A stretch of DNA of 7,332 nucleotides from a virus (taxonomy: Duplodnaviria; Heunggongvirae; Uroviricota; Caudoviricetes), in IMG/VR virus record IMGVR_UViG_2695420564_000011. One strand, given 5' to 3'. Position 1 is the first letter of the stretch. The number at the start of each line of letters is the position of its first letter. Shown here piece by piece: positions 1-7,332 of the stretch. The notes beneath the pieces were generated by a model that saw nothing but the letters and a program-made list of their open reading frames with translations, searched no databases and was not told the DNA's origin. Made by a program: the position numbers and the translations under genes.

Positions 1-648
1 ATGAAAATCGCCGATCTCGCTGAAGCAATAGGAGTGGATGCGGCGAATATCTCACGCCTGGAAACAGGTAAGCAGAAACAATTCACTGAACAAGCCCTGA
101 GTAATATTGCCAGGAGCTTAGGTGTTGATATTGCAGATCTCTTTACCTCAGACTTCAAAAGTAATACTGTATGTAAAAACAGTGCTTGTGAGGATGTTGC
201 GCAGGTGAAGGATGTATTCCGTATTGAAATGCTGGATGTCAGTGCCAGTGCGGGAAATGGCCTTATCCAGGGCGGTGATGTCATTGATGTGATTCATGCC
301 ATTGAATACAGAACTGATAATGCTGTATCGATGTTTGGCGGACGGCCAGCCAATCACATTAAAGTTATCAACGTTCGTGGGGACAGTATGTGTCCAACCA
401 TTGAGCCAGGAGATCTCATCTTCGTTGATGTCAGTATCAATCAGTTTGATGGAGATGGTATCTATGTATTTGGTTTTGATGATAAAATTTATGTCAAACG
501 ACTGCAAATGATACCTGACAAACTACTGGTGATTTCTGATAACCAGATTTACCGTGAATGGGGAATTACCAGCGAAAATGAACACCGGTTTATGGTCTTT
601 GGAAAGGTCTTAATCAGCCAGTCACAAACCCTTAAGCGACACAATTAA
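1..648 (+). CDS. CI-like prophage repressor (HTH_XRE DNA-binding domain + S24 LexA-type autopeptidase domain); probably 5'-truncated by the window edge
   Basis: HTH recognition segment KIADLAEAIGVDAANISRLETGK sits at the extreme N-terminus with no room for helix 1, so the gene likely starts upstream of the window. C-terminal domain has a candidate Ala-Gly cleavage site (SASAGNG), a GDSM serine motif (VRGDSMCPTIEPGDLIFVD) and a VKRL lysine motif (IYVKRLQM), matching the LexA/lambda CI Ser-Lys dyad. Stop TAA at 646-648. Confidence 0.85.
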   Translation: MKIADLAEAIGVDAANISRLETGKQKQFTEQALSNIARSLGVDIADLFTSDFKSNTVCKNSACEDVAQVKDVFRIEMLDVSASAGNGLIQGGDVIDVIHAIEYRTDNAVSMFGGRPANHIKVINVRGDSMCPTIEPGDLIFVDVSINQFDGDGIYVFGFDDKIYVKRLQMIPDKLLVISDNQIYREWGITSENEHRFMVFGKVLISQSQTLKRHN

Positions 649-668
649 CCCTTACCTCCTCATCAATT

Positions 669-690
669 AGCCACCCGAAGGTGGCTTTTC
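669..690 (+). terminator. Intrinsic terminator downstream of the repressor gene
   Basis: GCCACC (670-675) pairs with GGTGGC (680-685) around a CGAA loop, followed by TTTTC. Lies 22 nt after the repressor stop codon. Confidence 0.6.
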
Positions 691-703
691 ATTACCCATT
701 AAA

Positions 704-742
704 TTGCATATCTCGCAACAAAAACACTTGCATAATGCGCAA
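704..742. promoter_or_regulatory. Two related 15-bp dyad-symmetric operator-like sites (TTGCATATCTCGCAA at 704-718; TTGCATAATGCGCAA at 728-742)
   Basis: Both sites have the form TTGC-N7-GCAA with inverted outer arms. Centres are 24 bp apart, similar to lambdoid operator spacing. They sit between the repressor gene and the downstream operon, and the second overlaps a candidate -35. Confidence 0.5.
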
Positions 743-756
743 CTTCATTTTATCTT
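728..756 (+). promoter_or_regulatory. Candidate sigma70 promoter (pL-like) driving the rightward accessory operon
   Basis: -35 TTGCAT (728-733), 17-bp spacer, -10 TATCTT (751-756). The -35 overlaps operator-like site 2. No experimental support; the -10 matches consensus at 4 of 6 positions. Confidence 0.35.
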
Positions 757-1168
757 TCTTTCCAGACAAACAAACAAGGTACTAACAAAATTTGGTTGTA
801 ACACGGCGTATGGCACATGCGTCGTTAGCGGTCTGGGGACGTTAAAGGGGACAATCCACTCCTTGCTCGGGCAAACAAACCAGGTAGCCGGAATGTGCAA
901 GTCAATGATGATGCTGATAAGACGCCTAACCAGCGTCGCGATTCGGTTTGACGCCTGGGAAGAGACCAGGGTGCAACGATGAGGGCATTTATGGAACCGC
1001 GACAAAGTGTGGTGCCGTAACTGGCTAAGTGCTCTCAGCGTTGTGGTAATCCGCGAAATGGCGCGGCGGTAAGTATGGCGGGGTTATTCCTTCCCCGTTG
1101 AGGACACCGGGTTGTCAGGTTGACCATACGCTTAAGTGACAAGCCCACCACAACAGCCACTGCTTTGG

Positions 1169-1213
1169 CGGTACCAGTTTGTACACTTGCTTCCGGCTGG
1201 TACCGCTCTTTTT
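1169..1213 (+). terminator. Terminator-like hairpin inside the leader (CGGTACCAG ... CTGGTACCG followed by CTCTTTTT)
   Basis: 9-bp perfect stem (1169-1177 / 1197-1205) with a 19-nt loop, followed by a T-rich tract at 1206-1213. The large loop is atypical for a strong intrinsic terminator, so this may be an attenuator or pause site. Confidence 0.4.
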
Positions 1214-1302
1214 ACAAAACAGAGAAGAGCATCACCGGACGACGGGCTCATAACCCAATCCACCCGGGCGGCTGCCACCGCAGGTGCTCTTCTCTGTTTT
1301 GT
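1214..1302. repeat. 18-bp perfect inverted repeat (ACAAAACAGAGAAGAGCA at 1214-1231; reverse complement TGCTCTTCTCTGTTTTGT at 1285-1302) flanking a 53-bp spacer
   Basis: Read directly from the sequence; arms are exact reverse complements. Located about 50 nt upstream of the yfdP-like start codon. Would form a long RNA hairpin or a DNA cruciform/binding site. Confidence 0.9.
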
Positions 1303-1350
1303 GGAGAAACCAACCGACCTTGCAGGGTCGATATGATGAGGAGCAGCAAA

Positions 1351-1713
1351 ATGGCTAGCGAACGCAGTACTGATGTGCAGGCATTTATCGGGGAGCTGGA
1401 CGGCGGCGTATTTGAAACCAAAATCGGCGCTGTTCTCAGTGAAGTCGCTTCAGGTGTGATGAACACGAAAACCAAAGGGAAGGTCTCGCTCAACCTGGAA
1501 ATCGAACCGTTTGATGAGAACCGTGTGAAAATAAAACACAAACTCTCATATGTTCGTCCGACTAACCGCGGGAAAATTTCCGAAGAAGACACCACCGAAA
1601 CGCCGATGTATGTCAATCGCGGTGGTCGCCTGACTATTCTGCAGGAAGACCAAGGACAATTACTGACTCTTGCCGGTGAACCTGACGGAAAACTCCGCGC
1701 AGCAGGTCATTAA
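1351..1713 (+). CDS. yfdP: YfdP-like prophage protein, 120 aa, function unknown
   Basis: ATG at 1351 is preceded by GAGGA (1338-1342) at 8-nt spacing. Upstream in-frame sequence is non-protein-like and overlaps the leader hairpins. Alternative start at 1333 (MMRSSKM...). Length of 120 aa matches my recollection of E. coli CPS-53 YfdP; not verified by search. Confidence 0.7.
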   Translation: MASERSTDVQAFIGELDGGVFETKIGAVLSEVASGVMNTKTKGKVSLNLEIEPFDENRVKIKHKLSYVRPTNRGKISEEDTTETPMYVNRGGRLTILQEDQGQLLTLAGEPDGKLRAAGH

Positions 1714-1778: not shown

Positions 1779-2603
1779 ATGTCTCAGAACTTAGACGCAA
1801 CCGCAATTAATCAAATCCATGCCCTTATTTCTGCTCAGGGTGTTAATGAAATTATTAGTAAGATTGGTGCCGATGCTGTGGCATTGCCTGAGAATTTCCG
1901 CATTCATGATCTGGAAAAATTTAATTTAAATCGCTTCCGTTTCCGTGGTGCGCTTTCCACTGCCAGCATCGATGACTTTACCCGTTATTCTAAAGATCTT
2001 GCAGATGAAGGCACCCGCTGCTTTATCGATGCCGATAATATGCGTGCCGTCAGTGTGCTTAACCTGGGTACTATTGATGAACCAGGTCACGCAGATAACA
2101 CCGCCACTCTCAAACTGAAAAAGACAGCACCGTTCTCTGCTCTGTTGTCTGTTAATGGCGAGCGTAACTCCCAAAAGTCACTGGCAGAATGGATTGAAGA
2201 CTGGGCCGACTACCTTGTGGGCTTTGATGCTAATGGTGACGCCATTCAGGCAACCAAAGCGGCTGCGGCGATCCGTAAAATCACAATTGAAGCGAACCAG
2301 ACCGCTGATTTTGAAGACAATGACTTCAGCGGCAAACGCTCCCTGATGGAGTCTGTCGAAGCGAAGACCAAAGACATTATGCCAGTGGCATTTGAATTTA
2401 AATGCGTTCCGTTTGAAGGCCTGAAAGAACGTCCGTTTAAATTACGCCTCAGCATTATCACTGGCGATCGTCCTGTACTGGTTCTGCGCATTATTCAGCT
2501 GGAAGCGGTGCAGGAAGAAATGGCTAACGAATTTCGTGATCTGCTTGTTGAGAAATTTAAAGACAGCAAAGTAGAAACCTTTATTGGTACTTTCACCGCC
2601 TGA
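1779..2603 (+). CDS. yfdQ: YfdQ-like prophage protein (DUF2303 family), 274 aa
   Basis: ATG at 1779 with TGAGGA RBS 8 nt upstream. N-terminus [12 protein letters not shown] and the 274-aa length match my recollection of CPS-53 YfdQ; not verified. Confidence 0.8.
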
Positions 2604-2730: not shown

Positions 2731-3267
2731 ATGTCATTTATTAAAACTTTTTCCGGGAAGCATTTTTATTATGACAAGATAAATAAAGACGACATCGTTA
2801 TTAACGATATCGCGGTTTCCCTTTCAAATATCTGTCGCTTTGCAGGACATCTTTCACACTTCTACAGCGTCGCCCAACATGCGGTGCTTTGCAGCCAGCT
2901 GGTACCGCAGGAATTTGCTTTTGAAGCGTTAATGCATGATGCAACAGAAGCATATTGCCAGGACATCCCCGCACCACTGAAACGCCTTCTTCCTGACTAT
3001 AAACGGATGGAAGAAAAAATAGACGCCGTAATCCGTGAGAAATACGGGTTACCTCCTGTTATGAGCACGCCAGTGAAATATGCCGATCTCATTATGCTGG
3101 CAACCGAACGCCGCGATCTCGGGCTTGATGATGGTTCTTTCTGGCCTGTACTGGAAGGTATCCCGGCGACAGAGATGTTCAAAGTTATTCCACTGTCACC
3201 AGGCCATGCCTACGGGATGTTTATGGAACGTTTTAACGAGTTATCGGGGTTACGCAAATGCGCATGA
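2731..3267 (+). CDS. yfdR: YfdR-like HD-domain phosphohydrolase (5'-deoxynucleotidase family), 178 aa
   Basis: ATG at 2731 with GGAGA RBS (2721-2725) at 5-nt spacing; the track's upstream GTG start at 2704 is less likely. HD signature present (H..H ... LMHDATEAY). MSFIKTFSGKHFYYDKI N-terminus and 178-aa length match my recollection of CPS-53 YfdR. Confidence 0.85.
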   Translation: MSFIKTFSGKHFYYDKINKDDIVINDIAVSLSNICRFAGHLSHFYSVAQHAVLCSQLVPQEFAFEALMHDATEAYCQDIPAPLKRLLPDYKRMEEKIDAVIREKYGLPPVMSTPVKYADLIMLATERRDLGLDDGSFWPVLEGIPATEMFKVIPLSPGHAYGMFMERFNELSGLRKCA

Positions 3268-5117: not shown

Positions 5118-5236
5118 ATGCAGACAATCATCTATCAGATAACCCCCAGCAAATGGTGTACGGAGAGAGTCCTTATTGCATCAACAGGGCTAAAGCCCGG
5201 CACCATCGAGCGGGCCAGAAGAAAGTCATGGATGCA
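5118..5236 (+). CDS. N-terminal fragment (39 codons) of an excisionase/AlpA-like DNA-binding protein, truncated at the junction at 5237
   Basis: ATG at 5118 with GAGG RBS (5109-5112). Sequence MQTIIYQITPSKWCTERVLIASTGLKPGTIERARRKSWM resembles the W...T..ARR pattern of phage Xis-like winged-helix proteins. The reading frame then runs into antisense groEL sequence, which is not meaningful. Confidence 0.35.
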
Positions 5237-5237
5237 N

Positions 5238-6399
<1,162 letters not shown>

Positions 6400-6407
6400 N
6401 NGNNNNN

Positions 6408-6437
6408 ATAGCCGGTACCGGAAATGGTAATTTTCAT
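6408..6437 (-). pseudogene. ugd: First 10 codons of ugd (UDP-glucose 6-dehydrogenase; MKITISGTGY), joined through an N-block to the groEL fragment
   Basis: Reverse complement of 6408-6437 is ATGAAAATTACCATTTCCGGTACCGGCTAT, matching the Ugd N-terminus MKITISGTGYVGLSNG as I recall it. Expected position immediately downstream of gnd. Confidence 0.6.
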
Positions 6438-6510
6438 TTCATGCTCTCAGAATTAACTTAGCTGTGAATCATGATGTTTTAGCATCCTGATAGAAGTTAA
6501 AATTTTTAGC

Positions 6511-6538
6511 GCTACGCTGATCCCAGCATCAGCGTAGC
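6511..6538. repeat. 11-bp perfect inverted repeat (GCTACGCTGAT / ATCAGCGTAGC) with 6-nt loop in the gnd-ugd intergenic region
   Basis: Read directly from sequence. No T-run follows on either strand, so it is not a canonical terminator; it could be a regulator binding site or RNA stem in the ugd promoter/leader region. Confidence 0.8.
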
Positions 6539-6624
6539 AACAAAATCAGACTTTACTTATAAGTATAGCTGATATTTATTAAGTTAATATTAAGCAATGA
6601 AATTTAATCTATAGGATTATTGGC

Positions 6625-6655
6625 AAAAAAAACCCGGCAATATATGCCGGGCCTC
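6625..6655 (-). terminator. Intrinsic terminator of gnd
   Basis: On the minus strand: GAGG-CCCGGCA-TATAT-TGCCGGG followed by eight T (plus-strand A-run 6625-6632). Lies about 24 nt downstream of the gnd stop codon. Confidence 0.85.
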
Positions 6656-6678
6656 AATTTATTGCTGATTAAATTAGA

Positions 6679-7332
6679 TTAATCCAGCCATTCAGTATGG
6701 AACACACCTTCTTTATCAATGCGCTTATAAGTATGCGCACCGAAATAGTCACGCTGAGCCTGGATCAGGTTCGCAGGCAGCACCGCGGCACGGTAGCTAT
6801 CGTAATAAGCAACCGCCGCAGAGAAGGTTGGAACTGGGATACCGTTTTGCACTGCATAAGCGACGACATCACGCAGTGCCTGCTGGTAGTCATCGGCGAT
6901 TTTCTTGAAATACGGAGCTAACAGCAGGTTAGCGATTTTTGGATTTTCGGCATAGGCATCGGTGATTTTCTGCAGGAACTGCGCACGGATGATGCAGCCA
7001 GCACGGAAAATCTTCGCGATTTCACCGTAGTTCAGATCCCAGTTGTATTCTTCAGACGCAGCACGCAGCTGAGAGAAGCCCTGAGCGTAAGAAACGATTT
7101 TTCCCAGATACAGCGCACGACGAACTTTCTCGATAAACTCAGCCTTATCGCCTGCTGGCTGCGCTTGCGGACCAGAAAGTACTTTAGATGCGGCAACACG
7201 CTGATCTTTCAGAGAAGAGATATAACGTGCAAACACAGACTCGGTAATCAGCGACAGCGGTTCGCCGAGATCCAGCGCACTCTGACTGGTCCATTTACCG
7301 GTGCCTTTATTAGCCGCTTCATCCAGGATCAC
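6679..7332 (-). CDS. gnd: 6-phosphogluconate dehydrogenase (decarboxylating), C-terminal 217 aa; 5' part lies beyond the window
   Basis: Translation ...[51 protein letters not shown] ... [24 protein letters not shown] matches the enterobacterial Gnd C-terminal domain. Stop TAA at 6679-6681 on the minus strand; ORF open to the window edge. Confidence 0.95.

Follow-up and report, generated by a model that had tools for sequence, protein, structure and literature searches.

Two dyad-symmetric sites downstream of a lambdoid cI gene as probable OL operators on a predicted early-left promoter ahead of a structured RNA leader

Introduction

The DNA that follows a prophage repressor gene raises the question of whether the repressor acts upon it and, if so, which transcript is thereby controlled. 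In the stretch of 7332 bp analysed here, referred to below as the window, a cI-type repressor gene and its terminator are followed by two 15 bp sites of the form TTGC-N7-GCAA, which an initial annotation made from the sequence alone had read as an OL-type operator/promoter controlling an accessory operon. Positions 704–756 are considered here, with a probability of about 0.85, to be the OL operators of the window CI on the early-left promoter PL of a lambdoid prophage of the SfII/mEp460/ST64B type. This assignment is based on a rare motif that occurs again at OR, is conserved and co-varies with the repressor, and on conserved promoter hexamers. Literature searches covering SfV/SfII/ST64B, mEp460 and also the CI clades of Stx phages gave no description of the operators of this immunity group, and the operators of this immunity type appear never to have been described before.

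Materials and methods

The first 1400 bases of the window are 96–99% identical to lambdoid phages and prophages (mEp460, PhiR47_1 and several Stx2a-converting phages) and ~90% identical to SfII, and the matching open reading frame in those relatives is annotated as cI or as an 'XRE family transcriptional regulator'. Two full-prophage loci, from mEp460 (L001) and from E. coli AZ 187 (L002), were used to recover the surroundings of the repressor gene; in both, the order is rha, ymfL and cro on one side and, diverging from cro, cI, a noncoding stretch, yfdP, yfdQ and yfdR on the other. Diverged homologues were chosen by tblastn of CI against phage genomes, and five were fetched: SfII (90% DNA identity over the region and 97% identity of the CI protein), Salmonella 118970_sal3 (sal3; CI identity 84%), Klebsiella phage 1 LV-2017 (Kp1LV; 71%), Escherichia phage Flotzy (68%) and Cronobacter ENT47670 (50%).

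Positions 5118–7332 of the window are not contiguous genome. They hold an internal groEL fragment at about 5235–6399 (minus strand), bounded by N at 5237 and at 6400–6407, and fused to this fragment are the first ~10 codons of what we take to be ugd (MKITISGTGY), followed by the gnd–ugd intergenic region and the 3' end of gnd (6679–7332, minus strand). This arrangement was absent from all complete E. coli genomes searched, which suggests that the segment is a chimera produced by scaffolding or assembly. The positions of all features discussed below are collected in Table 1.

Table 1. Features of the window and OR sites of the E. coli AZ 187 prophage locus (L002)
Feature	Position	Strand	Basis or remark
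cI-type prophage repressor gene	1–648	+	HTH_3 and Peptidase_S24 (Pfam); 5' end cut by window edge
Intrinsic terminator of the cI transcript	669–690	+	Hairpin 669–686 and T-run; terminator scan
Probable OL operator, promoter-distal, TTGCATATCTCGCAA	704–718	Strandless dyad	Exact motif, conservation, PWM 16.0 bits (rank 2)
Probable OL operator, promoter-proximal, TTGCATAATGCGCAA	728–742	Strandless dyad	Exact motif, conservation, PWM 18.9 bits (rank 1)
Predicted PL −35, TTGCAT	728–733	+	Left half-site of proximal operator; TTGC invariant in five phages
Predicted PL −10, TATCTT	751–756	+	17 bp after −35; TA..TT invariant across SfII, sal3, Kp1LV and Flotzy
Module A, structured leader RNA, predicted first PL product	799–1040	+	Covariation; fold model covers ~180 nt core 799–978
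sRNA-17 variant homologue	1040–1213	+	Closed by GUUGUGG...CCACAAC; ends at t1; fold z-score −5.3
Terminator t1	Stem 1168–1177 with 1197–1206, T-run 1207–1213	+	10 bp hairpin
Long hairpin, ACAAAACAGAGAAGAGCA with TGCTCTTCTCTGTTTTGT	1214–1302	+	18–25 bp; SfV-type module, immediately before yfdP
yfdP, first ORF of the early-left operon	1351–1713	+	RefSeq annotation of homologous prophage
yfdQ	1779–2603	+	Downstream of yfdP; RefSeq
yfdR	2731–3267	+	Downstream of yfdQ; RefSeq
OR site, exact, TTGCTTAACGCGCAA	L002 3921–3935		−35 from cI ATG
OR site, one mismatch, TTGCGTGATGAGCAT	L002 3873–3887		−83 from cI ATG
OR middle site, degenerate, AAATATTTTGCGCAA	L002 3900–3914		−56 from cI ATG

Results

The repressor gene and its terminator

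The repressor domains of the window protein are matched in Pfam with E-values of 1e-10 (HTH_3) and 6e-19 (Peptidase_S24). The initial annotation was right in placing a repressor reading frame at 1–648, but the gene is 5'-truncated: the cI start given in RefSeq lies outside the window, 45 nt further upstream, the full protein comprises 230 amino acids, its first 15 codons are missing here, and positions 1–3 are an internal ATG of cI and not the true start. The residues MNIGNRVRQLRQAKN, which are encoded upstream of the window, complete helix 1 of the CI helix–turn–helix, which establishes that the window truncates cI. The GenBank annotation of mEp460 gives cI in a short form of 215 amino acids without helix 1 of this motif. 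In the 230-residue numbering, Ala99-Gly100 (nucleotides 250–255), Ser144 (385–387) and Lys181 (496–498) are invariant in the CI alignment, and this Ala-Gly and Ser/Lys set is the predicted autocleavage apparatus of LexA and lambda CI. Among solved structures no close homologue of the repressor was found, the matches being to generic HTH proteins and to UmuD. The terminator of the cI transcript stands between cI and the two operator-like sites, and a hairpin and T-run of differing sequence occur at the same place in every homologue, where in SfII they are annotated as a terminator.

The paired sites and the predicted promoter

The two 15 bp sites, which had originally been described as lying 24 bp apart, are exact matches to TTGC-N7-GCAA at 704–718 (TTGCATATCTCGCAA) and 728–742 (TTGCATAATGCGCAA), and are the only exact matches in the 7332 bp of the window. 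They are separated by a gap of 9 bp (24 bp from start to start) and begin 56 and 80 nt past the cI stop codon, the first of them 14 bp past the T-run of the cI terminator. By chance 0.28 exact matches would be expected per window, compared with the two that were found, and two matches anywhere in the sequence, adjacency not being required, were obtained in only one of 200 dinucleotide shuffles. A search of the window allowing one mismatch gave four additional matches against 5.8 expected, which is background. No third OL site was found at ±24 bp or among these one-mismatch matches, and both here and in each of the four homologues with this motif (SfII, sal3, Kp1LV and Flotzy) OL comprises two sites only, which lie between the terminator T-run and the −10 hexamer, as the original count of two sites would have it.

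The proximal site spans the −35 hexamer and the spacer of the predicted PL, its left half-site being the hexamer TTGCAT itself and TATCTT following after 17 bp; the overlap with a candidate −35 noted in the initial annotation is thus confirmed. Transcription would start near A764. The predicted PL is a weak match to the sigma-70 consensus (7 of 12 positions), and a generic promoter scan of positions 500–1500 with a threshold of 9/12 called no promoter, PL included, so that PL rests on phylogenetic footprinting.

Recurrence of the motif at OR

The same motif is found upstream of the repressor gene, where a search for further TTGC-N7-GCAA sites had been suggested at the outset. The cI–cro intergenic region of L002, of 97 bp, contains an exact site, a site with one mismatch and, between them, a degenerate one (Table 1); as had been anticipated for the promoter of the repressor itself, this control region lies outside the window. 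The candidate PRM, TTGCTT-17-TGTAAT, would end 7 nt before the cI ATG and give a near-leaderless message as in lambda, and the candidate PR on the opposite strand would be TTGCGC-17-TAATAT. When read by eye, the −35 hexamer is the TTGC half-site in all three candidate promoters, PL, PR and PRM.

The middle OR site of E. coli and Shigella keeps only the GCGCAA half intact, within an invariant TTGCGCAAGTTG block, and the site is near-consensus in Kp1LV and Flotzy. Its form suggests either that its occupancy may depend on cooperativity or that it may have a dual role as the −35 of PR. Further dyads occur within genes of the region: GTGCGCCTTACGCAC lies inside cro (L002 3823–3837), 50 bp beyond OR1, and at this same place (−133) there is an exact TTGCGATTTTCGCAA in Flotzy and a site with one mismatch in sal3 and Kp1LV; an exact TTGCGGCCTGTGCAA lies inside rha (L002 2252–2266). 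These extra dyads could be auxiliary CI sites or a coincidence of coding sequence.

Conservation and co-variation with the repressor

In SfII, sal3, Kp1LV and Flotzy two sites with 0–1 mismatch are present at +53 to +56 and +76 to +80 after the cI stop codon, and OR sites likewise precede the start of cI, at −83, −56 and −35. In the OL alignment the invariant columns comprise the two arms of each site, TTGC and (C)GCA(A), and the TA..TT of the −10 hexamer, which is located exactly 17 bp after the second TTGC, whereas the terminator, the N7 cores, the spacer between the sites and the downstream sequence vary. Conservation in homologous prophages, which the initial annotation had proposed as a check, is therefore borne out, with the same offsets, invariant half-sites and variable spacers. 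The refined consensus of the operator is TTGCG-N5-CGCAA. In ENT47670 the sequence ATGCG-N5-CGCAT is found at both OR and OL and the recognition helix of CI differs (DVGNLSRLERGMQ versus DAANISRLETGKQ), the protein and its site having apparently changed in coordination.

A similar pattern is seen at short distance. Among 80 viral contigs with CI at least 99% identical, counted as loci and not as independent events, 39 OL haplotypes were found, in which the minor alleles number 0–1 in each of the eight half-site columns per operator, up to 10 in the N7 cores and up to 41 in the flanks; the spacing of the sites is 24 bp in 59 of these loci and 23 bp in the other 21. A position weight matrix (PWM) trained only on the operators of sal3, Kp1LV and Flotzy ranked the two window sites first and second (Table 1), the next best score being 6.1 bits, and its top four matches in the 9.4 kb L002 prophage locus were OL2, OR3, OL1 and OR1. 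As scores of 16–19 bits barely exceed 15.3 bits, the 95th percentile of the best scores in shuffled sequence of 9.4 kb, the weight of the argument lies in joint position and conservation and not in single scores.

Heteroimmune phages, which have the same downstream leader and another repressor, are similar to the window only downstream of a boundary at ~784, just past the predicted PL start. Two of them (L129 and L179) carry different dyads (ATGTA..TACAT; ATGTACCCTCGAGATACAT and AGATACATAATGTATCT) right after the terminator of their own repressor gene, and these dyads sit on a TTGACA-17-CATAAT promoter in the position equivalent to PL. The predicted OL/PL architecture is thus kept and the specificity swapped, as expected of an immunity cassette.

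The leader RNA downstream of PL

The predicted PL would feed a noncoding leader of ~590 nt, which is a mosaic of conserved noncoding modules. No credible open reading frame, for an N-like gene or any other, was found in 757–1350, where RefSeq annotates nothing, and yfdP is without a Pfam match; SfII, SfV and SfIV have been stated to lack N, cII and cIII (SfIV paper). ARAGORN found no tRNA or tmRNA in the window, and Rfam searches at two sensitivities, with the C4/CI-type immunity RNAs included, gave no plus-strand match to the leader, the best matches being chance matches on the minus strand far below the gathering threshold.

The first module, module A, begins ~35 nt downstream of the start site predicted for PL. 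In an alignment of 20 diverse sequences, a six-helix model of the ~180 nt core has 98% of cells paired, and double-sided changes occur in 10 of 28 pairs, compared with 4.9 ± 1.1 in shuffles (0/500) and 1–4 in slid controls. The almost invariant core reads …TATGGCACATG…GGTAGCCGGAATGTGCAAG…GGCGATTCGGTGTGAC…GGAAGAGA…, and the loop GCACAT could form a pseudoknot with an invariant ATGTGC, neither of the two varying among module A sequences. In P1, the gap that follows tRNA-Ile2 directly in the ban operon (L088 2501–2685) matches module A at 78% identity, and an unannotated gap of phiV10 that is immediately followed by tRNA-Arg (L089 2501–2745) does so at 82%. A 19 nt core of the module was found in Kosakonia, Phytobacter, Citrobacter, Kluyvera, Klebsiella, Erwinia, Buttiauxella, Enterobacter and others, and the module is also present in loci L211–L234. 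Besides the P1 ban operon, its contexts are lambdoid PL leaders, epsilon15-like phages, where it stands before tRNA-Arg, and prophages of many Enterobacteriaceae genera. A small stable RNA always follows module A at the fixed junction CGTTGTGG, this being a tRNA in phiV10 and an RNA of the sRNA-17 type in the window.

The published sRNA-17 of E. coli K1 RS218 is 193 nt in length (PMC7719688), and it was placed via mEp460 by coordinate arithmetic together with the supplement alignment of that paper. The intergenic interval given there, 1152 bp, is the same as that which separates the stop of cI and the start of yfdQ in mEp460, and the RACE ends of sRNA-17 (PMC7719688) correspond to L001 5041–5233, in sense orientation to PL and extending from the GTTGTGG junction to the T-run of t1. 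The window homologue agrees with the RS218 RNA in position, in the GTTGTGG at the 5' end and the CCACAAC that closes it, and in the 3' end GGTACCAG...CTGGTACC with its T-run, whereas the internal ~100 nt are different and place it in the class called 'degenerative' by the authors (PMC7719688). Deletion of sRNA-17 raises yfdP ~96-fold (PMC7719688); we infer that this rise reflects the loss of a terminator and not regulation in trans, which is not the authors' own reading. The context of the PL leader, in which this RNA is a sense product ending at an intrinsic terminator, is not discussed in that paper (PMC7719688).

Between t1 and yfdP lies a long hairpin, and a small hairpin at 1315–1331 stands just ahead of the yfdP Shine–Dalgarno sequence; the module of 1214–1350 is common to SfV, SfIV, SfII, ST64B and Citrobacter phiNP. 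Transcription-termination-mediated immunity in SfV was reportedly described by Roberts, Allison and Verma in 2007, in a study that may concern this hairpin module. The Pfam matches in the yfdP–yfdQ–yfdR operon are to DUF2303 and YfbR-like.

Discussion

Proposed mechanism

CI dimers would recognize the 15 bp dyad TTGCG-N5-CGCAA, and one dimer bound at 728–742 would cover the −35 hexamer and the spacer of PL, with a second dimer at 704–718, 24 bp away, where cooperative binding is probable. With both dimers in place RNA polymerase would be shut out, and the lysogen would not express the leftward early transcript, this transcript consisting of the structured leader followed by yfdP, yfdQ, yfdR and the genes beyond. 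Upon DNA damage, RecA-stimulated self-cleavage of CI would lift the repression. CI would also bind the three related OR sites, which lie ~0.8 kb from OL, and an OL–OR loop is therefore possible. The recognition helix of Cro is similar to that of CI (both A-x-I/L-S-R-L/I-E), and Cro probably shares the operator sites. We infer the binding of CI, its cooperativity, the activity of PL and the start site from sequence.

The original proposal that the sites control the accessory operon has to be divided. Operators on the promoter of this operon are favoured by the sequence evidence (the motif at OR, the conserved offsets and the co-variation with the repressor), as is the OL-type reading itself, but CI would not be the sole control, since a leader of ~590 nt with an intrinsic terminator precedes yfdP, the first open reading frame. 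sRNA-17, which lies in this leader, is detectable in the RS218 lysogen (PMC7719688). This detection, together with the derepression of yfdP upon deletion of sRNA-17, indicates some transcription of the leader despite repression, which may originate from a leaky PL, from read-through of the cI terminator or from an internal promoter. As transcription reaches the leader under repression, terminator t1 would share the control.

Alternative explanations

The sites could bind CI and yet be mainly architectural, either as the anchor of an OL–OR loop or in termination or roadblocking of the cI transcript, with the real PL elsewhere, for example downstream or inside the leader. The weak PL hexamers, the mere 14 bp between the cI terminator T-run and the sites, and the separate ArcA-bound 'promoter' reported for the RNA starting at about window position 1040 (PMC7719688) would fit such a role. 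However, five diverged phages all have the TA..TT of the −10 at exactly 17 bp from the TTGC of the −35, the promoter of the heteroimmune phages at the same position is strong, and the shared leader starts ~25–35 nt past that point in all lambdoid contexts; furthermore, no other conserved promoter was seen in 757–1350, and the scan of 500–1500 found none. A mainly architectural role is hence unlikely.

That the sites serve a regulator other than CI, whether Cro by itself or a host protein such as ArcA, is very unlikely, even though the recognition helix of Cro is similar, Cro shares the operators in lambda, and phosphorylated ArcA has been reported to bind somewhere in this intergenic region (PMC7719688). 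The motif follows the cI/cro immunity cassette and not the host, being kept with CI in phages of E. coli, Salmonella and Klebsiella; it shifts with the diverged CI of ENT47670, is replaced in heteroimmune phages and is unlike the GTTA-type ArcA repeat used in PMC7719688, and binding of Cro would be additional to that of CI rather than an alternative to it. That the sites are functionless chance palindromes in an AT-rich intergenic spacer is extremely improbable: the half-sites are just 4 bp long, and one exact match also lies inside rha of the full prophage, but two matches anywhere in the window are as rare in shuffled sequence as stated above, the position and the half-sites are conserved while their surroundings drift, and both sites are recovered by an independent PWM. 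The conservation data effectively refute this last reading.

Comparison with known systems

The predicted OL/PL resembles that of lambda in that the sites lie downstream of and co-directional with cI, one dyad overlaps the −35 hexamer and the spacer, and the motif is found again at OR between cI and cro. The spacing between OL1 and OL2 of lambda is 24 bp, equal to that observed here, and the repressors share the HTH and S24 domains, the Ala-Gly site and the Ser/Lys dyad. The differences are that the sites are 15 bp in length (TTGCG-N5-CGCAA) here and 17 bp in lambda, that OL has two sites instead of three, that rexAB is not present between cI and OL, the distance between OL and OR being ~0.8 kb compared with 2.4 kb in lambda, and that neither an N gene nor a recognizable nutL follows PL. 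The two-site OL is no anomaly, since OL3 has also been reported to be absent from the Stx phage 933W (PMC3317979), the repressor and operator sequences of which are unrelated to those described here; the 933W repressor has been reported not to be cooperative on adjacent sites.

As in HK022, with its PL–putL arrangement, a phage without N carries a structured RNA very close to the PL start. The put element has two stems in ~70 nt; module A is far longer, with six or more helices in ~240 nt, and also occurs in non-lambdoid contexts (the P1 ban operon and phiV10). Comparison by blastn (word size 7) of window positions 741–1360 with HK022 positions 22000–30000, the region expected to hold put, gave chance matches of 10–14 nt only, and an identity of the leader with put was rejected for lack of sequence similarity by this method.

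Significance of the operators and of the leader

Relatives of this repressor were found in 446 viral contigs. Positions 1–1400 as a query gave matches in 4785 of 5426 complete E. coli genomes, a figure much of which reflects the shared leader; at least 80% of the query is present in only 669 genomes. The immunity group is very common, and among its members are Stx2a-converting phages and SfII, which converts the serotype of Shigella. The operator and the predicted PL/PR/PRM layout would make superinfection immunity and induction behaviour predictable from sequence, and TTGCG-N5-CGCAA with its CI would constitute an orthogonal repressor/operator pair for engineering. The OL/PL is otherwise a textbook element of the lambda type, and its greater value may be that of an anchor for the unannotated RNA leader, by which the published sRNA-17 is recast as an RNA that arises from the early-left transcript of the phage by termination.

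For module A, a role in cis may tentatively be considered, in which the RNA, as a platform for processing or as an RNA antitermination/anti-Rho element, governs passage past t1 into yfdPQR and replaces N/nut, although we regard this role as doubtful. If it were true, module A would replace N/nut in a large group of N-less lambdoid phages, and the CI operators would be just the first gate of a two-gate control.

In several genomes (L212, L215, L220 and L222) module A comes after the 3' portion of a unit resembling sRNA-17 (…CCACCACAAC or …GGCGGAGTGCGCTYCC…GTGTGA), and tRNA-like T-arm sequences (GGTTCGATTCC), which ARAGORN does not call, follow it. These sequences hint at tandem arrays of leader-plus-small-RNA units.
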